Part shown: piece after piece, positions 22,871 to 64,000 of the stretch
How positions within the stretch are numbered: the first letter of the stretch is position 1
Layout of the letters: each line of letters starts with the position of its first letter
Origin: a virus
Lineage: Duplodnaviria; Caudoviricetes
DNA: 64,000 nt
Reading direction: 5' to 3' (one strand)
IMG/VR virus record: IMGVR_UViG_3300005200_000008
Span: 25,931 to 89,930 of that record
Made by a program: the position numbers and the translations under genes
Notes under the pieces: generated by a model
What the model was told of the DNA's origin: nothing
The model's database searches: none
Seen by the model: the letters and a program-made list of their open reading frames with translations, nothing else

Positions 22871-24034
22871 ATGCTTCTGAGGGGTAAATACTGCGAAGCG
22901 GTTATTCATACCGATTTTGTGGAAAACGAGGCGATCTCTCAGATTATCAATATATTGAACCAGCCCATGATGGAGGGCGTAAAAGTCAGAATTATGCCTG
23001 ACGTTCATGCCGGAGCTGGCATCTGTATCGGGTATACCGCCACGCTGAATGATTATGTCGTGCCTAACTTTATCGGCGTTGATATCGGCTGCGGTTTGAC
23101 GGGTTTACCGTTGGGGAAACTGACTTCCGACCAGATTAATTTTCAGGGGTTGGATGATCATATCCGGAAAACTATCCCGTCGGGAACCAGCGTTCATCAA
23201 AAAGTATTGACTGACAGGATACACGGAGTATTTGACGGCGCTAAAATTATTAATGACCATTTTCTTGATTTTTCGGAATTCTGTAATTTTTTAGTCGATA
23301 CCTGCAAAGAAATAGGGATTGATTACGGCAGGGTGTTAGCGGCTATCGGGTCTTTAGGCGGCGGCAATCATTTTATTTCCATTGACCGGGGGGCTGAGGG
23401 GGATTGCTATTTGGTGGTTCATTCAGGTTCGAGAAATTTTGGTAAATGCGTTGCCGAGTATTATCAGAAAAAAGCGGCAAAAGGACAAAAGAGTACCGGC
23501 CTTGAATACCTCGAAGGTATCAACAAAGATCGTTATTTGGCATGGATGGAATTCGCTCAGATGTACGCCGCCTTAAACCAGCGCGTGATTATTGATCTTA
23601 TCGGTGATTTTTTTTCCGTTTCCCGCGATGATAATATGCTGATTGAGTCTGTTCACAATTATATCAGTTTCAAGGATAAGATAATACGGAAAGGCGCCAT
23701 TTCAGCAAACGATGGCGAAATGATAATGATACCGCTTTCTATGGCTGACGGCATTTTGTATTGCCAGGGTAAAGGAAATTCTGAATGGAATTGTTCTGCC
23801 CCGCACGGCGCGGGCCGATTGATGTCAAGATCGAAGGCGAAGCAGTCAATATCTTTGGACGACTACCGCAGGCGCATGGAGGAAGCCGGCGTATGGAGTT
23901 CGTGCGTAGGAACCGAAACGCTTGACGAATCCCCGCAGGCTTATAAAGACCCGGAGATGATTTCAGAAGCGGTTGGGGACACGGCAGAAATAATCGACCA
24001 TTGGAAAGAAATTTATAATTTTAAGGCGGCATGA
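22871..24034 (+). CDS. rtcB: RNA ligase RtcB
   Basis: MPDVHAG, GVDIGCG, GSLGGGNHF, HSGSR, HNY, SAPHGAGR, ESPQAYKD. Confidence 0.95.
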   Translation: MLLRGKYCEAVIHTDFVENEAISQIINILNQPMMEGVKVRIMPDVHAGAGICIGYTATLNDYVVPNFIGVDIGCGLTGLPLGKLTSDQINFQGLDDHIRKTIPSGTSVHQKVLTDRIHGVFDGAKIINDHFLDFSEFCNFLVDTCKEIGIDYGRVLAAIGSLGGGNHFISIDRGAEGDCYLVVHSGSRNFGKCVAEYYQKKAAKGQKSTGLEYLEGINKDRYLAWMEFAQMYAALNQRVIIDLIGDFFSVSRDDNMLIESVHNYISFKDKIIRKGAISANDGEMIMIPLSMADGILYCQGKGNSEWNCSAPHGAGRLMSRSKAKQSISLDDYRRRMEEAGVWSSCVGTETLDESPQAYKDPEMISEAVGDTAEIIDHWKEIYNFKAA

Positions 24035-25663: not shown

Positions 25664-26338
25664 ATGAGAAAGGTATTGTTTGTTGCGTTTATTTTAACCA
25701 GGTTTTGGGCGTTCGGGCAAAGCGAGGACAGTTTCGCTATTTTGCAGGGCAAAGACGGCGGTATAACCGTTACCGGCTACACCGGCTCCCAAAAGGAAAT
25801 TGTAATCCCTGAGAAGATAAGCGGTCTGCCGGTAACCATAATCGGGAAGAACGCTTTCAGCAATAAAAGTTTGACAAAGGTTTCTATTCCCCGCACTGTC
25901 ACAATGGTTGACGAAAGGGCTTTTGCCGGTAACGCGATTACCGAAGTAACTATTGCTAACGGCGTAAAAGTAATTTGGAACGAGGCGTTTGCCGACAACC
26001 AGATAAAAAGCATAACGCTTCCAAACTCCATAACCGACGTGGGCGGTTCGGCTTTCCGCAATAATAAAATTACATCGGTCGTATGGCCGGCTAGTCTGGA
26101 TTTTGTGCGTATCGGCGTATTCCAGAATAATCCTGTAGAGACCGTTACCTTCGGCGGCGCCAAAACAATATCCGACAGGTCGTTTGAGGGTTCCGATATT
26201 TCATCTATTACCATAGCCAAGGATGTTTTAATTAATATCGAATCGGGGCTGGACAGGTCGTTTATCAATTTTTACAATAGCAACGGAAAACGTGCAGGCA
26301 CCTACATCAAAAACAACCGCATTTGGTCGGCAAAGTAA
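25664..26338 (+). CDS. exported BspA/TpLRR-type leucine-rich repeat protein
   Basis: signal peptide, ITVTGYTGS...IPEKISGLPVTIIG, repeated AF-N-IT-VTI-N units. Confidence 0.85.
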   Translation: MRKVLFVAFILTRFWAFGQSEDSFAILQGKDGGITVTGYTGSQKEIVIPEKISGLPVTIIGKNAFSNKSLTKVSIPRTVTMVDERAFAGNAITEVTIANGVKVIWNEAFADNQIKSITLPNSITDVGGSAFRNNKITSVVWPASLDFVRIGVFQNNPVETVTFGGAKTISDRSFEGSDISSITIAKDVLINIESGLDRSFINFYNSNGKRAGTYIKNNRIWSAK

Positions 26339-55556: not shown

Positions 55557-56924
55557 ATGGCCTCTACGAATACGAGGGTGCGCAATACCCGTAAAACGCA
55601 TGAAGGCGGCCCGGCTTCGATAATCAAGCCGTTGGAGCAACTTAAACGTTCCGTTATGTCGTGCTTGTTGTGGGAAGATTCTTTTTACGAGGACGGCGTA
55701 TCCATTGCCGACCGCGTAAAGGAACTCGTCGGGAAAGTGTCCGAGGAGGAAGCGCGGCAGGTTCTTTTCGATGCGAAGTTTAAGTCGAAACTCCGGCATA
55801 TGCCGTTGTATCTGCTGACTATTCTGGCCGAAAAGAAATGGCTGAAAAAGGACGACGTAGCCAGGGTCTGCACCCGCGTTGATGACATGACCAAACTTTT
55901 GTCGCTGTATTGGAAGGACGGCAAAAAACCGTTAAGCCACCAGTTGATTAAGGGCTTGGCTCAGGCAATCCCTACGTTTGACGAATACAAACTGGCGAAG
56001 TATAACCGCTCCAAGGCGGTGAAACTCAGGGACGTGTTCCGCATTGCAAGGCCGAAGCCGGCAAACGAAGCGCAGTCTGCCCTCTGGAAACGGGTCGTCG
56101 CCGATGAATTGAAAGTTCCTGATACGTGGGAAGTCGCCATTAGCGCCTGCGGCAGTGATAACCAGAAGAAGGCTCAGGAATTTACCCGGCTGCTGACTGA
56201 AAAAGTTCGTGACGAGGAAACCGGCAAAGAGTTCAACAAACTCGGTGATCTGGCTTTTCTTCGCAACATACGGAAGATGAAGGAAGTCGGCGTTGAGGAA
56301 GATTTGATTCGTAAATCTTTTGAAGACCGGAAATGGGGGTGGATTATCCCTTACCAGTTCATTACCGCCGCTTCGCACAATCCGGTTTTTGAGGACGTAC
56401 TGGAAAACGCGATGTACAAATGCCTGGGCGAACAGGAACCTATTGAAGATAAGGCCGCCCTGCTGGTTGACGTGTCAGGTTCGATGGACAGCAAAATTTC
56501 CGACAAGTCGGAAGTCAAGCGTTACGATGTCGCTATCAGCCTTGCTATTCTGCTCCGCGAAATCTGCAAGGACGTGAAACTGTATACTTTTGACAATGAA
56601 CTTCATGTTATCCCGCCACGGCGCGGTTTCGCCCTGCGTGATACGATACGCAAGCAGGTAGGCGGCGGGACGAGTATGTGGAGCGCGGCAAGAGGCGCCG
56701 CGAAAGATCGGCGCAACAGGGTAATGGTGATTATCACCGACGAGCAGACGCAGGATAGCGGCAGGTATTCAGATGCCAATGCCGATCTGCTGGTAATCAT
56801 CAACGTCGCTTCTTATGAGAACGGCGTAGGCTACGAAAAAGGTTGTGTTCACATCAATTCTTGGTCTGACAATATCGTAGATTATCTGCGGGAACTTTTG
56901 AAAAATATGGAATTTGTAGTTTAA
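55557..56924 (+). CDS. Ro60/TROVE-domain RNA-binding protein with vWA domain
   Basis: KTHEGG, LWEDSFYE, LRHMP, TWEV..S, LVDVSGSM MIDAS, GGTSM, ITDEQ. Confidence 0.93.
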   Translation: MASTNTRVRNTRKTHEGGPASIIKPLEQLKRSVMSCLLWEDSFYEDGVSIADRVKELVGKVSEEEARQVLFDAKFKSKLRHMPLYLLTILAEKKWLKKDDVARVCTRVDDMTKLLSLYWKDGKKPLSHQLIKGLAQAIPTFDEYKLAKYNRSKAVKLRDVFRIARPKPANEAQSALWKRVVADELKVPDTWEVAISACGSDNQKKAQEFTRLLTEKVRDEETGKEFNKLGDLAFLRNIRKMKEVGVEEDLIRKSFEDRKWGWIIPYQFITAASHNPVFEDVLENAMYKCLGEQEPIEDKAALLVDVSGSMDSKISDKSEVKRYDVAISLAILLREICKDVKLYTFDNELHVIPPRRGFALRDTIRKQVGGGTSMWSAARGAAKDRRNRVMVIITDEQTQDSGRYSDANADLLVIINVASYENGVGYEKGCVHINSWSDNIVDYLRELLKNMEFVV

Positions 56925-57760: not shown

Positions 57761-57890
57761 GAAAGCGTAGCTCAGTTGGTAGAGCAATAGCAAAAATGTT
57801 CTTTCGTTGCTTTTTACTCCTACGGGATGTTGTAGACGAGAGTTACTTAATCAGGGCTGTGGGTCATTGGTTCGAGTCCAATCGTTTTCC
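57761..57890 (+). ncRNA. tRNA-Y chimera 3
   Basis: GAAAGCG/CGTTTTC acceptor, canonical D and T arms; insert TTTAC-TCC-TACG-GGA-T-GTTGTAG. Confidence 0.7.
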
Positions 57891-58122
57891 TGAAGGAGTT
57901 TTATTATGAAAATTACGAAAGCGCAGAACCCATACAATGTAAAAATCGGGCAGGTATGGGCAGACAGGGATTCTTCCCGTAAAAATACGTTTGTAATTAA
58001 AAGGTTGCTTATTGATAAAGACGGGCTGGGATTCGCTCTAGTATTCCGTGAAAAAACTAGAGCAAAAACATGGATTAGGCTTAATCGGTTTAACAAGTAT
58101 TTTAAAAAATAGATTTTTTTAT

Positions 58123-58194
58123 GCGTTATAGGTGTTGATGGATACACGCCGGTCTTCCAAACCGGAGTAAACGGATCGTTACCGTTATGACGCT
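58123..58194 (+). tRNA. tRNA-Gly(TCC)
   Basis: GCGTTAT/ATGACGC, CCGGT-CTTCCAA-ACCGG, U73; T loop ATCGTTA. Confidence 0.8.
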
Positions 58195-58220
58195 TGTAGG
58201 AGAGGGGCCTATTTAATTAA

Positions 58221-59246
58221 ATGACAGAAGTTTTAAGCCAGGACGAAATCGATCAGTTGCTTACTGCCATATGCGCAGGCAATGACGAGCCAGAAGATCA
58301 TCGCCCCGCAAGAGACAGTAGAAAAATAAAAATCTATGATTTTAGGCGCCCTGATAAATTTTCAAAAGAACAGATCAGAACAATCTCTATAATGCACGAA
58401 ACTTTTGCCCGTCTGACAACTACCACTCTTTCAACGCAACTCCGCAGTATGGTTCATGTCCATGTCGCTTCGGTAGACCAATTAACCTACGAGGAGTTTA
58501 TCCGTTCAATACCGACCCCCACGACGTTGGCTATAATCAATTTAGACCCGCTCAGAGGGAATGCCATTCTTGAAATTGATCCCGCCATAACTTTTTCCAT
58601 TATCGACCGAATTTGCGGCGGCCGTGGAGAAGGAAATAAATGCCAGCATGAAATGACCGACATCGAGCAGTCGCTCATGGAAGGGATAATTATTCGACTA
58701 TTGGCAGATGTGAGGGAGGCTTGGACTACCGTTATCGACCTTCGCCCCCGCCTTGGGCAGATCGATACGAACCCGCAGTTCGCACAGATTGTACCCCCTA
58801 CCGAAATGGTCGTCCTTGTTACCCTGGAAACAAAAGTGGGCGATGTGGAAGGGCTGATGAACATTTGCATACCCTACATAGCAATCGAGTCTATAATGGG
58901 TAAATTATCCGCTACTTACTGGTATCACGGCAACAGAGCGGGGCGCGACGAGAATACGGTTGTTGACATCATTAACCATATAGACGAAATGAGTACCACT
59001 ATAGTTGCCGAAGTCGGCAGGGTTGACGTTCCTGTCAGAGACATACTTGCCATTAAGCCCGGCGATGTTTTCAAACTGCCTGTTAAGCAGAATTCCGATT
59101 TACTGGTTAGGGTTGAAGGCAGGCCGAAGTTTGCCTGCCGTCCCGGTATATCGGGGGCTAATAAGGCGATGCAAATCGTAAATAAAATAAATTACTTTCA
59201 AGGAGACGACTATGGCGAACAGCAAGAAGACGGATGCGGCGAATAA
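58221..59246 (+). CDS. fliM: flagellar motor switch protein FliM
   Basis: [51 protein letters not shown]-terminal SPOA domain. Confidence 0.95.
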
Positions 59247-59577
59247 TGCTGAAAAGGTACAGAATATACAATTCCCCAGTTTAATACCCGGCCGGCGCGG
59301 AGATGATGCCGACCGTAGCAATATCGGCCTTCTCATGGATGTCCCTATGGAGATGTCCGTAGAACTTGGGCGTACCCGCAAATTGGTGAAAGAAATCCTT
59401 GCAATGGGGGAAGGCACAATCATCGAATTGGACAAACTTGCCGGAGAGCCTGTTGACGTTCTTGTAAACCAGAGGCTTGTAGCCAAAGGCGAGGTTGTGG
59501 TTATTGACGAGAATTTCGGAGTTCGCATTACCGAAATTGTTTCCCCCGGTTTGCTCCAGCCTGCGGTTTCCGAATAG
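59212..59577 (+). CDS. fliN: flagellar motor switch protein FliN (FliY C-terminal-like)
   Basis: [15 protein letters not shown]...[17 protein letters not shown]...[18 protein letters not shown]. Confidence 0.93.
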
Positions 59578-59585
59578 GAGAAGAA

Positions 59586-60800
59586 ATGGTTTATTACGCC
59601 ATTATTATATCTATTGCCGGTCTTTTGATAGCGTTTTTTATAGCCAGTTATGTTATCGGGCGTAAAAAAAATAAGAATGAAAAACTTCCAGAACAGGATA
59701 AAATAGAGCCGCTTTCAATAACTAAAGACCTTATAAGCGAACAGCCGAAAAATGCTGCCCAACTTATTAGAACCTGGCTTGTGGACAAATCACAAAGCGG
59801 TTGTATGGAATATACCGCTATTCAAAAAGCGGCTATATTTTTTATTACCGTCGGTATTGAGTATTCCTCAATGATATTCCAATATATGCGCGAAGATGAA
59901 ATTGAAACCGTAGTATTTGAAATAACAAGAATTGAATCTGTCGGTTATAATCAGAAATGCGCGATATTAAACGAATTCAATGAATTAATGGAAGCGGGTA
60001 ATCTTGTTTCTAACGGCGGTATTGAGTATGCCCGGGAACTGTTGGAAAAATCGTTAGGCTGTCAAAAAGCAATAGATATTCTTAATCGTTTAACATCCGG
60101 TTTGCAGATACGCCCTTTTGACTTTATACGCCGCGCCGACCCTTCGTACCTTATAAATTTTATCCAGCAGGAACACCCGCAGATTATAGCCCTTATTCTT
60201 TCGCATTTGGAACCGAGCAAGGCTTCTAAAATTTTGGAAAATTTACCGCACGAAGTACAAAGCGATGTCGCACGGCGCATTGCGATAATGGACAGAACAA
60301 GCCCTGAAACATTGCGGGAAATAGAGCGGGTACTCGAAAGGAAACTTTCAACCCTGTCAAGCGAAGATTACGCTACCGTCGGCGGCGTGGAAAGCATTGT
60401 GGAAATCCTCAATTTGGTTGATCGCGCTTCGGAGAAGCAGATTATTGAATCGTTAGAAGACGAAGACCCCGAACTTGCCGAAGAAATTAAAAAACGGATG
60501 TTTGTGTTTGAAGACATTATTATGCTGGACGATCAAGCTGTTCAGAAGTTTATGCGGGAAGTGGATACGCCGGAACTTGCCAAAGCCTTGAAAACAGTCG
60601 ATTCGGAAGTGCAAAACAAAATATTCAACAACATGAGCAAAAGCGCCGCCGCTTCGCTCAGGGAAGATATAGAGCATATGGGGCCTGTTCGCTTAAAAGA
60701 CATTGAAGAAGTCCAACAGAAAATTGTCTCAATAATCAGGCATTTGGAAGACGAAGGCGAGATTGTTATTTTAAGAGCCGGCGAAGACGAACTTGTATAA
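59586..60800 (+). CDS. fliG: FliG with N-terminal TM helix and FliF-C-terminal-like segment
   Basis: QKAAIF, GGIEYARELL, EHPQIIALILSHL, GGVESIVEIL, MFVFEDI, GPVRLKD; N-terminal YYAIIISIAGLLIAFFIA and PKNAAQLIRTWL. Confidence 0.92.
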   Translation: MVYYAIIISIAGLLIAFFIASYVIGRKKNKNEKLPEQDKIEPLSITKDLISEQPKNAAQLIRTWLVDKSQSGCMEYTAIQKAAIFFITVGIEYSSMIFQYMREDEIETVVFEITRIESVGYNQKCAILNEFNELMEAGNLVSNGGIEYARELLEKSLGCQKAIDILNRLTSGLQIRPFDFIRRADPSYLINFIQQEHPQIIALILSHLEPSKASKILENLPHEVQSDVARRIAIMDRTSPETLREIERVLERKLSTLSSEDYATVGGVESIVEILNLVDRASEKQIIESLEDEDPELAEEIKKRMFVFEDIIMLDDQAVQKFMREVDTPELAKALKTVDSEVQNKIFNNMSKSAAASLREDIEHMGPVRLKDIEEVQQKIVSIIRHLEDEGEIVILRAGEDELV

Positions 60801-60909
60801 ACGTTCAAAAATTTTCAACGGTTTATCGGCTTTTCCGTGATTTGATCGGAAGTCCTTATTAATGGCTATAATTTTCTCTTTAATCAAAAGTATCGGAGTT
60901 AATAGGTAA

Positions 60910-61677
60910 ATGGATAAAATCGGCCCTTGTAAAAAATGCGGAGGGACTAATTATTTCGCAAAACACGTCGGCAAAGAAGACGGTTATTTGAACGACGAAA
61001 GCTATAAAATAAAATGTCGTTCCTGCGGTCATATAGTCGTGTCCGAAGTCTCGGCCGAAAATGCTATTAAAGAATGGAACACATGGGAAACCGGGCCTGA
61101 ACTGCCGCCAGACCCGAACATACCAATATCCCCTGACGGTAAATTTCAAATATACAGGGTGCAAGTAAAGCGTGAAGGCGTACACAAAATTATATACGTC
61201 GTGCCGTGTACGGCAGATTCTACCGGCCACGGCGATACGCTTCACGACGATTTGCAAGAAGCGATAAAGGTAGCAGATTTTAACCGCAAAAAAGCCGAAG
61301 AAAGGGAAAAGAGGGAAGCCGAAGAAAAAATCAACAGGGTGAAGCGCATAGAAGAACAGAAAAAACGCGAGTATATGTACGGTTTCGGCGACGATCTTCC
61401 CCCTATCAGGAAAGGGAAAATTATACAGCATATGCAGAAGGTATGGAATTTTACGGAAGCCTCGATAAACAAAACCATGACCATGAAGGATTTCATTCAT
61501 TTTGTATACCTTCAAGGCAATCCTGAAATGAAAATAATAACGGAAAAATATGATGCCCGGGGGCATGAACGGGCGGAGCCGAAACTTACTTATTGCATAA
61601 ACCGAACAGAGGTCGGAAAAATCGCTTACGATTATTTGCAATACCTTATTAAAAACAAAATAAAGGTAGAGGGCTGA
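60910..61677 (+). CDS. hypothetical protein with Lar-like Zn finger
   Basis: PCKKCGG...KCRSCG...AIKEWN. Confidence 0.5.
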   Translation: MDKIGPCKKCGGTNYFAKHVGKEDGYLNDESYKIKCRSCGHIVVSEVSAENAIKEWNTWETGPELPPDPNIPISPDGKFQIYRVQVKREGVHKIIYVVPCTADSTGHGDTLHDDLQEAIKVADFNRKKAEEREKREAEEKINRVKRIEEQKKREYMYGFGDDLPPIRKGKIIQHMQKVWNFTEASINKTMTMKDFIHFVYLQGNPEMKIITEKYDARGHERAEPKLTYCINRTEVGKIAYDYLQYLIKNKIKVEG

Positions 61678-62890: not shown

Positions 62891-64000
62891 ATGGATCGGA
62901 AAATAATCTATCAGGTAGAATCTGGCTCCCAACTGTACGGCACGTCTACGCCGGCTTCCGACACCGATTATTCCTCGGTTTTCATGCCTACGCCTTATGA
63001 TTTGTTTTCGCTTCAAAAATGCGAGTACATAGACAACAGCACCAAGAACTCGGCAAGTAACCGGCGCAATACCGCCGACGACGTGGACGATCAAATGTAT
63101 TCGATAAGCCGGTATCTCCATCTTGTTTTAAACGGCAATCCGAACCTGATAGAAATTCTTTTTTGCAATAAGCCGGTTATTGAAGAACCGGTATTTACCG
63201 AAATAAAAAAGAATTATCAAAAACTGCTATCCAAAAGGATTTATGATTCGTTTACCGGTTTTGCCATAAGCCAGAGAAGGAAACTGGAATATAAAGCCCT
63301 GCGTTTTGGCCAGTTGAGAAAAACTTTAAAATGGCTTGAAGAAAACAGATCGGCGGTTGTCGCGGATCCGTCTGCCCAAATGAGCTTGGAAGACGCCGAT
63401 ACGCTCAATTCAATGCTTTCCGAATACAAGGGTGATAAAAGCAACAAACAGCATTTCCATGAAAATCTGCCTTGGAAAATAATTTATGAGAAAATTAAAA
63501 AGGAATATGAAACCTACGGTTGGCGTGTAAAAACAGACACGTTTGAAACGCTCGGTTATGACGTGAAATTCGCTTCCCATGCCATACGGCTTTTCCATGA
63601 AGGGAAACAACTCATGCTGACCGGCAGATTGGAGTTTCCTATTACTGGTCAGCCTTACGACGATATTATGTCTATTCGGCGCGGTGAAGTTTCACTGGAA
63701 TCTTTTTACAACGTTTGCGACCGCTATGAAGAAGAGAACCGGCAAGCGAAAGAAAAGTCAATCCTTCCCGAACAGGCAGATTGGAAATGGGCGAACCAAT
63801 ATCTTGTTGACACGCTGGAAAAGCATATTGTACGCCTGTCGAAATTTGGCGACAAGCCGAATTGCTGGAATTGCAAATTTTCAGAAGAGACCGGCAACGA
63901 GGTATGGCCTATCAGATGTAAGGTTCCGGGATTAAATCCTGTTAATATCCGAAAAAACGCGAAAATTCTTCAAGAAGGAGAGTATTGCCGGGGTTTTGCA
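62891..64000 (+). CDS. DNA polymerase beta-superfamily nucleotidyltransferase (runs off window end; not in ORF track)
   Basis: MDRKIIYQVESGSQLYGTSTPASDTD, NGNPNLIEILF, GYDVKFASHAIRL; no stop before base 64000. Confidence 0.85.
   Translation, partial: MDRKIIYQVESGSQLYGTSTPASDTDYSSVFMPTPYDLFSLQKCEYIDNSTKNSASNRRNTADDVDDQMYSISRYLHLVLNGNPNLIEILFCNKPVIEEPVFTEIKKNYQKLLSKRIYDSFTGFAISQRRKLEYKALRFGQLRKTLKWLEENRSAVVADPSAQMSLEDADTLNSMLSEYKGDKSNKQHFHENLPWKIIYEKIKKEYETYGWRVKTDTFETLGYDVKFASHAIRLFHEGKQLMLTGRLEFPITGQPYDDIMSIRRGEVSLESFYNVCDRYEEENRQAKEKSILPEQADWKWANQYLVDTLEKHIVRLSKFGDKPNCWNCKFSEETGNEVWPIRCKVPGLNPVNIRKNAKILQEGEYCRGFA

Follow-up and report, generated by a model that had tools for sequence, protein, structure and literature searches.

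A phage gene for a FliG with a predicted membrane anchor and the FliG-binding tail of FliF, located next to fliM and fliN in a phage of termite-gut spirochaetes

The stretch of DNA analysed here (64 kb, referred to as the window) is the right-hand part (positions 25,931 to 89,930) of the 89.9-kb IMG/VR virus record IMGVR_UViG_3300005200_000008, the completeness of which is estimated at about 42%. Its source is a large phage of termite-gut spirochaetes. The window contains a flagellar switch cassette on the + strand (58221-60800), consisting, in this order, of fliM, fliN and a fusion gene, in which a predicted membrane anchor and FliF's C-terminal tail precede FliG (Table 1). By its domain content, the product of the fusion gene is a true FliG, with FliF represented only in the tail, and it is best regarded as a phage-borne variant of the FliF-FliG fusion theme, with its own FliM and FliN. 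We infer that the three proteins form phage-made switch units, independent of the membrane-supramembrane (MS) ring of the flagellum, whose competition with host components disturbs the motility or chemotaxis of the host, a function to which we give an even chance of being the right one.

On direct reading of the sequence, the N-terminal part of the fusion protein is as the original prediction had described it, with a hydrophobic helix, a basic stretch and a tail motif ahead of the FliG core. Residues 2-25 are 24 uncharged hydrophobic residues (mean Kyte-Doolittle hydropathy of 2.27 over residues 2-23), followed by the basic stretch RKKNKNEK (residues 26-33) and then by a few linker residues of both acidic and basic character. 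The phage linker is about 16 residues long, versus about 45-50 residues in host FliF. The tail motif ISEQPKNAAQLIRTWL is found at residues 50-65, and its core, AAQLIRTWL, is identical to that of host FliF. The junction that follows takes the place of the very end of FliF, of its stop codon and of some 20 residues from the Lys-rich N-terminus of host FliG. The fusion contains a complete FliG: TIGR00207 was matched over residues 75-402 with 431 bits (cut-off 226.7), and the matches to FliG structures in the PDB reached an expectation (E) value of 5e-80. The earlier description of the protein as a “mini-FliF” without an MS ring also holds, as the ring-building domain of FliF is absent from both the protein and the 90 kb of the record. 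No FliF family was matched in the fusion protein (Pfam and NCBIfam, E up to 10), in which at most one residue precedes the membrane helix, and PF01514 was unmatched anywhere in the 90-kb record. Pfam and NCBIfam scans of residues 1-85 gave only weak matches to unrelated membrane segments; the family models stop short of the FliF tail.

The first 80 residues had been predicted to show homology to FliF, and several searches located this homology in the tail helices. With residues 1-85 as the query, phmmer returned just two matches from all PDB sequences, both of them FliF C-termini: 12dr_A (residues 547-567) and 5tdy_A, which is the FliF peptide co-crystallised with FliG in the T. maritima FliFC:FliGN structure. 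When the final 140 amino acids of Leadbettera azotonutricia FliF were compared by BLASTP, the E value was 2e-8, with the final 35 residues of this FliF matching residues 34-68 of the phage protein. A hidden Markov model (HMM) built from 80 spirochaete FliF tails matched the N-terminus of the window protein with an E value of 6.7e-6 and the N-termini of several relatives with values of 3e-3 to 1e-13; with the same model, no unrelated open reading frame (ORF) among 2467 six-frame ORFs fell below an E value of 0.39. When a profile made from the N-termini of three anchored proteins was run against 5.8 billion sequences, more fusions and genuine FliF (P0276, E 1.3e-4) were recovered, and the chain of the Vibrio FliF-FliG fusion, 8z4d_1, aligned to the phage protein from residue 42 onward, across the junction. 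A word-based search with residues 1-80 retrieved only the protein itself. As judged from these matches, the tail helices are homologues of the segment by which spirochaete FliF binds FliG.

The original prediction held that only the last transmembrane helix and the FliG-binding helix of FliF had been retained. The part of this claim concerning the tail stood, with significant homology, whereas the identity of the membrane helix with the second transmembrane helix (TM2) of FliF is positional. An HMM of TM2 matched the phage membrane helix with an E value of 0.12, which is not significant, and 141 of 500 shuffles aligned equally well in the comparison of the phage anchor with TM2. At two host loci (L031 and L073), the tblastn alignment began at query residue 6 or 7 and stayed colinear across host TM2, the tail and the stop codon and on into FliG. 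The topology signal of the anchor is also that of TM2, with no charge before the helix and a basic cluster after it. We take the anchor as the probable counterpart of FliF TM2 on positional grounds (its position, order and topology) and, because the sequence tests were not significant, we do not claim homology. A cleavable signal peptide was considered and rejected: the n-region has no positive charge, there is no AxA-type site, and the basic cluster comes after the hydrophobic stretch.

As the original prediction had recognised, the membrane helix would not be made if translation started at an internal methionine (M74, in MEYTAIQK), but the evidence points to the first ATG instead. This ATG (59586) is located 8 nt past the fliN stop codon, at a spacing of 5 nt from an AGGAG Shine-Dalgarno site, whereas the ATG of M74 (59805) has no such site. 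Furthermore, the position of M74 is occupied by Val or Ala in the aligned relatives P0003, P0123 and P0273 (V-D-Y-T or A-D-Y-T). Four proteins from other metagenomes (P0003, P0123, P0273 and P0274) start in the same way as the window protein, with a Met followed by some 21-27 hydrophobic residues; a basic cluster and a linker then lead to the tail motif. The identity of the extension among the anchored proteins goes down to 31-39%, with in-frame length changes and the same plan throughout. In the only unsaturated pair (P0123 and P0273, with a synonymous divergence, dS, of 0.29), the ratio of nonsynonymous to synonymous divergence (dN/dS) was 0.34 for the extension, over 99 codons, and 0.15 for the FliG core. 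The Shine-Dalgarno site, the lack of conservation of M74, the retention of the extension in five proteins and this dN/dS value thus favour translation from the first ATG over translation from M74.

The structure of the full-length protein was modelled with AlphaFold2 on the basis of a 29-sequence alignment. The model has a helix at residues 2-25 (predicted local distance difference test score, pLDDT, of about 80), disorder at residues 26-39, helices at residues 42-52 and 54-66 (pLDDT of about 90) and then three FliG domains; the mean pLDDT is 82 and the predicted template modelling score (pTM) is 0.39, as expected for flexibly linked domains. A second AlphaFold model, limited to residues 38-180 (143 residues), has a pTM of 0.65. 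Residues 1-105 of this second model, corresponding to the tail and the first part of FliG_N, superpose on FliG_M (3HJL 100-192; 8WIW 97-190) and on FliG_C (Z 10-12, root-mean-square deviation 1.6-2.6 Å, 84-92 residues), whereas the solved FliG_N chains 5TDY_B and 5WUJ_B, in which the FliF peptide is a separate chain, cover just model residues 34/37-105. FliG_N co-folded with the FliF tail has a FliG_M-like fold (PMC7355467). The agreement of the model with this published co-folded FliFC:FliGN domain supports binding of the tail in cis, with the tail helices and FliG_N predicted to pack as a single FliG_M-like domain. The notion of a “self-chaperoned” FliG put forward earlier is consistent with both models. 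A Foldseek search with the full-length model yielded FliG structures only and was uninformative on the tail.

We searched for relatives of the window protein by an exhaustive phmmer search with residues 1-180 against 1.84 billion cluster representatives, plus a profile search. Thirteen proteins with the FliF tail motif directly ahead of FliG were obtained. Five are anchored (the window protein, P0003, P0123, P0273 and P0274), another five have the tail only (P0127, P0128, P0198, P0275 and P0278), and the remaining three have a FliM middle domain ahead of the tail (P0139, L006 10001-11782; P0140, L005 4074-5879; P0196, L008 7051-9333). The matches of the host-tail HMM to the putative tails of P0140 (E 0.62) and P0196 (E 17) were not significant, so these two are counted as members by motif and position only. 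An extra C-terminal region of about 100 residues is present in P0003 (L001 11270-11605), P0128, P0275, P0278 and P0198, and absent from the window protein; its recurring pattern (…RRFK…RLL…L.….V..AQNEI…) recalls the last FliG_C helices.

The family members with informative contexts lie mostly on phage contigs, usually beside FliM-FliN genes. P0003 and P0274 are encoded on contigs of 52-65 kb, flanked by a FliM-FliN fusion gene on one side and a T4-like portal gene on the other, with RtcB and DnaJ genes nearby, and P0273 displays the same left-hand synteny. P0198 lies among phage-like replication and lysis genes. The gene for P0128 (L004) is on a short contig with small unannotated genes, where it adjoins a FliM-FliMN_C gene; the contig of P0140 (L005) is similar, with no separate FliM gene, the FliM domain being fused into the protein itself, and its sample name (AustNasuHG) suggests a Nasutitermes hindgut. 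P0139 comes from a GC-rich, bacterial-looking contig of 69 kb with ordinary metabolic genes, outside any flagellar operon. A tblastn search of 50,697 GenBank phage records (GenBank/INPHARED) gave five matches and no phage FliF-tail-FliG. The best of these matches, MT835480.1 (an unverified “Bacteriophage sp.”), was rejected as an ordinary bacterial flgC-fliE-fliF-fliG-fliH-fliI operon, and the other four as short Listeria fragments matching query residues 140-404 only. The part of MT835480.1 concerned (L097, 37188-50285), at least, resembles a bacterial chromosome and not a phage. IMG/VR scans with the protein and with the alignment found no further viral locus, which is weak evidence of rarity because few peptide patterns were used and the record itself was possibly excluded.

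Termite-gut Treponema and Leadbettera have a FliG to which the FliG core of the window protein is 77% identical. In the inferred trees, the phage FliG groups with the other tail-bearing proteins, inside or beside a clade of fliF-adjacent Treponema FliGs. In Leadbettera azotonutricia, fliG begins 3 nt past fliF, and at 53 of 80 host loci (L010-L089) fliG is in frame with fliF, with only a stop codon and 0-2 codons between them. In hosts with this arrangement, one stop-codon change, or read-through, would yield a full-length FliF-FliG fusion. The tblastn alignments pass through the host fliF stop codon, over query residues 34-404 (6/7-404 in L031 and L073), and the phage protein is colinear with a host “FliF TM2-to-end plus FliG”. 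At the phage junction, a short deletion that left the frame intact appears to have taken out the very end of FliF, the stop codon and some 20 Lys-rich FliG residues; P0274 and similar relatives retain a remnant of the Lys-rich N-terminal stretch of FliG. These comparisons trace the gene back to the fliF-fliG junction of termite-gut Treponema, where the two genes are contiguous and in frame. In the simplest history, the captured host DNA would have started shortly upstream of TM2 and extended as far as the last codons of fliG, with subsequent loss of the stop codon and shortening of the linker. The cassette as a whole was put together by the phage lineage, because fliM and fliN stem from a different host operon.

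The host FliGs of this clade are mutually 91-99.7% identical. By comparison with them, the window protein is 66% identical in FliG_N and 81% identical in FliG_M and FliG_C, making FliG_N its most diverged domain (the host-to-host identity of FliG_N is 96%). The end branches of the tail-bearing proteins ranged from 0.16 to 0.47 (without the compositionally deviant P0139 and P0198), versus at most about 0.03 for the hosts. In the alignment with E. coli FliG, the equivalents of E125, H126, P127, Q128 and R160 are all present in the window FliG. The equivalents of the FliM-binding EHPQ motif and of Arg160 are kept in 12 of the 13 family members, the exception reading ERPQ. Four of the five torque-helix charges (E. 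coli K264, R281, D288, D289 and R297) are kept in the window protein, R281 being replaced by Ser353. Across the family, a stator-contact charge (the Arg281, Asp289 or Arg297 equivalent) has been lost in 6 of the 11 members having the torque domain, as against no losses at the two Arg positions in 118 host FliGs. The Arg281 equivalent is Ser in the window protein and P0275, Ala in P0198 and Asp in P0140; the Arg297 equivalent is Cys in P0198, Leu in P0140 and His in P0123 and P0273, and in P0123 the Asp289 equivalent is also changed, to Ala. In Salmonella, the contact between Arg281 and MotA Glu98 is reported to be the most critical for torque and stator channel activation, and that between Asp289 and MotA Arg90 positions the stator (PMC7564593). 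The original prediction had suggested that the protein could nucleate a decoy cytoplasmic ring (C-ring) or capture MotA stators. With Ser instead of Arg at the Arg281 equivalent, the window protein is less likely to have a stator interface that is fully productive.

In the mechanism that we propose, the N-terminal helix would insert in the inner membrane, with FliG facing the cytoplasm, and the protein could probably sit in the membrane without a flagellar base. The tail would fold back on FliG_N in cis, such that FliG would be stable and complete without an MS ring. With its own tail completing FliG_N and its own helix as the anchor, the fusion would be independent of the MS ring and not templated by it. 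FliG_M is predicted still to bind FliM, as EHPQ and the Arg160 equivalent (EHPQR) are intact, and the fusion would reach FliN and phosphorylated CheY (CheY-P) via FliM. Together with phage FliM and FliN, it would form membrane-tethered switch-complex units away from the basal body. These units, which would be unlikely to make torque themselves, would compete with host motors for FliM, FliN/FliY, CheY-P, FliG or stators, and swimming would be changed or stopped. Interference is favoured because the fast evolution, the divergence centred on FliG_N, the eroded stator interface and the drift of the family towards single chains fit selection for the binding of switch components and not for the turning of a flagellum.

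Several points weigh against interference as the function. The tail core is identical to that of the host, so binding in trans to host FliF or FliG is possible, and such trans interactions could serve either interference or incorporation, the latter being conceivable in host motors. The cis tail alone does not block function, since engineered full-length FliF-FliG fusions work in Salmonella (PMC4768692). R281V strains of Salmonella still swim, so the loss of a single Arg does not abolish the motor (PMC7564593), and torque loss is no rule of the family, because all torque charges are intact in five of its members. As the record represents only about 42% of the phage genome, other flagellar genes may sit elsewhere in it. 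Lastly, the homology of the anchor to TM2 is without statistical support.

It is alternatively conceivable that the three genes sustain motility, with phage FliM, FliN and FliG entering host motors and the infected cell continuing to swim and steer as host expression falls; the cis tail and anchor would then merely stabilise FliG and bring it to the membrane beside the MS ring. All three proteins score above curated equivalog cut-offs, and the phage FliM retains its CheY-binding N-terminal peptide and GGxG loop, just as the fusion keeps EHPQR and four of the five torque charges. The functionality of full-length fusions in Salmonella and the trans exchange that a host-identical tail core makes conceivable also fit this alternative. 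Each of the 34 FliF tails of an MS ring binds one FliG (PMC7355467). A FliG with its groove filled by its own tail, and without ring-building FliF domains, would have no obvious docking site, and evolution about ten times faster than that of host FliG, with repeated loss of stator charges, is unexpected for a spare part. In addition, the phage FliN matches only 267-372 of the 376 positions in the FliY model, which make up its C-terminal FliN domain, and lacks the N-terminal (CheC-like) part of the host-type FliY. We consider a motility-sustaining role unlikely, though deserving of some weight.

A separate phage-specified assembly appears quite unlikely. The fusion would polymerise on the membrane, for example by binding of the tail to the next FliG_N, into a ring or array with FliM and FliN that is put to a non-swimming use, such as engagement of MotAB altering proton flow, or a membrane scaffold. 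The family trend towards single-chain complexes (FliM-FliN and FliM-FliF tail-FliG fusions, and the extra C-terminal domains of about 100 residues) is compatible with such an assembly, as are the natural FliF-FliG fusions of Chlamydiaceae outside flagella (PMC4768692), but the 90 kb of the record yielded no gene for a stator, for export or for any other partner, the ring-building motif is absent and the stator-activating Arg is lost in the window protein. A more ambitious form of it, a rotor-like phage assembly without MS ring, rod or export gate, in which tails chained in trans would recruit phage FliM and FliN and engage host MotAB, seems decidedly improbable to us; if it were true, the phage would directly control proton flow or a membrane-bound mechanical device, beyond the titration of motor parts. 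It is very hard to credit that the fusion is a by-product of gene capture, in which the host DNA taken up would have run from a point within fliF through the whole of fliG, leaving a remnant of FliF as ballast that is tolerated or not translated, for although the protein is colinear with the host junction and the anchor has no significant similarity to anything, an extension with its ATG right at the hydrophobic helix is kept in five proteins diverged to 31-39%, the shortening of the linker preserved the frame, the unsaturated pair has a dN/dS of 0.34, the tail motif is present in all 13 family members and a strong Shine-Dalgarno site precedes the first ATG.

The phage protein can be compared with several known systems. 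The FliF and FliG pair of spirochaetes (fliE-fliF-fliG-fliH; e.g. L002 and L031) has a 77% identical core, the same tail core and the same order of membrane helix (TM2 in the host), linker, tail and FliG across the gene junction. The phage version, however, is one polypeptide, without the first transmembrane helix (TM1) and the periplasmic ring-building domains, with a shorter linker and without the Lys-rich FliG N-terminus; its gene adjoins fliM-fliN instead of fliE/fliH and evolves fast, and the Arg281 equivalent is Ser. Full-length FliF-FliG fusions, spontaneous or engineered, were reportedly described in Salmonella by Francis in 1992 and by Thomas in 2001. An in-frame junction between the end of FliF and the start of FliG is common to the phage protein and the full-length fusions of Salmonella (PMC4768692, PMC7355467) and Vibrio alginolyticus (8Z4D/8Z4G; PMC10941966, PMC11481574). 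These fusions keep the whole of FliF and yield working or ring-forming rotors, whereas the phage protein is FliF-derived in residues 1-66 at most and cannot form an MS ring, because only the tail of FliF and, probably, its last membrane helix have been kept. The FliFC:FliGN complexes (5TDY from T. maritima and 5WUJ from H. pylori) have the same partners, and the modelled tail and FliG_N are also FliG_M-like, but these complexes consist of two chains in trans, whereas the phage partners are covalently joined by an 11-residue loop. The FliF-FliG fusion of Chlamydiaceae (Bergeron 2016, PMC4768692) is, like the phage protein, a natural single chain outside the normal flagellar operon. Its periplasmic region is shortened, contains RBM2 and has a membrane helix on either side; of FliG it has a FliG_M-like part only, and it is chromosomal, without accompanying FliM/FliN; the phage protein, by contrast, has one membrane helix, no periplasmic region and the full N, M and C domains of FliG.

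YcgR and EpsE are small effectors that bind FliG and thereby slow the motor or uncouple it. The outcome suggested for the phage protein is similar (an effect on motility via the FliG/stator interface or the switch complex), but there is no sequence kinship, the phage protein being a modified rotor copy. Literature searches for phage-encoded FliG, FliM or FliN found no description, and the FliF-tail fusion is likewise absent from the papers searched. FliG must co-fold with the FliF tail to enter the motor, and it is probably by this contact that the MS ring serves as a one-to-one template for the C-ring. Phages have repeatedly kept this FliF-FliG contact, with or without the anchor, beside their own FliM/FliN, and they thus constitute a natural experiment. 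The cassette provides a ready minimal construct for studying FliG, FliM and FliN uncoupled from the MS ring, and it points to a phage route of controlling host motility or chemotaxis that is absent from the literature searched. The repeated loss of stator charges with the FliM-binding motif kept leads to a testable prediction of which interactions matter to the phage.

Table 1. Positions in the window of the three switch-cassette genes and of the elements of the fusion gene.
Feature	Coordinates	Strand	Basis or remarks
Phage fliM, 341 aa	58221..59246	+	Pfam FliM and FliMN_C; TIGR01397, 364 bits (cut-off 219.6)
Phage fliN, 121 aa	59212..59577	+	Pfam FliMN_C; TIGR02480, 108 bits (cut-off 84)
Fusion gene, full length (anchor, FliF tail, FliG), 404 aa	59586..60800	+	ORF, Pfam, NCBIfam
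Shine-Dalgarno AGGAG, 5 nt upstream of the fusion start codon	59576..59580	+	Direct sequence reading
Predicted transmembrane helix, residues 2-25, N-terminus out/C-terminus in, in the position of FliF TM2	59589..59660	+	Charge pattern, AlphaFold, tblastn colinearity
Basic stop-transfer stretch and disordered linker, residues 26-41	59661..59708	+	pLDDT <50 at residues 26-39
FliF C-terminal tail, two helices (residues 42-52 and 54-66), core AAQLIRTWL	59709..59783	+	Homology searches; pLDDT ~90
Junction, residues 67-76, containing M74	59784..59813	+	Alignments with relatives and host junctions
FliG_N domain, residues 77-178	59814..60119	+	Pfam, E 4e-38
FliG_M domain, residues 187-260; EHPQ at 60171-60182, Arg160 equivalent kept	60144..60365	+	Pfam, E 1e-32
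FliG_C domain, residues 288-395, with torque helix; Lys264, Asp288 (as Glu), Asp289 and Arg297 equivalents kept	60447..60770	+	Pfam, E 6e-45
Ser353 codon, at the position of E. coli FliG Arg281	60642..60644	+	Alignment; Arg in 118/118 host FliGs

The phage genes of the window include a tail sheath gene and those for a tail protein, an SbcC-like nuclease and RtcB, together with 10 tRNAs; a terminase-like match was weak (phrog_17415, E 5e-7). MotA, receiver-domain, FliH and FliF ring genes were looked for in the 90 kb of the record and none were found. A scan of 57800-61000 for promoters and terminators gave signals no more than the shuffled expectation. Compared with FliM from three spirochaete genomes, the phage FliM shows 62-67% identity. 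An origin of the phage fliN from a FliY-type gene, if correct, would mean that FliY's N-terminal part was lost. In the window, fliM and fliN overlap by 35 nt (59212-59246), in different frames. In related phages, a single ORF of 450-454 amino acids joins FliM and FliN (L001 8640-9992; L094 8627-9991; L095 6379-7740), and the FliN domain of these ORFs is 81% identical to the window FliN over 69 residues.

A tRNA-Gly(TCC) gene (58123-58194) stops 26 nt upstream of the fliM start codon and, given this short separation, the switch cassette may be co-transcribed with it or directly after it. Genes for a TROVE/vWA Ro60-like protein (55557-56924), an RtcB RNA ligase (22871-24034) and an RlaP-type nucleotidyltransferase (62891-64000) are also present in the window, near tRNA genes, and look like an RNA repair or RNA quality-control set.

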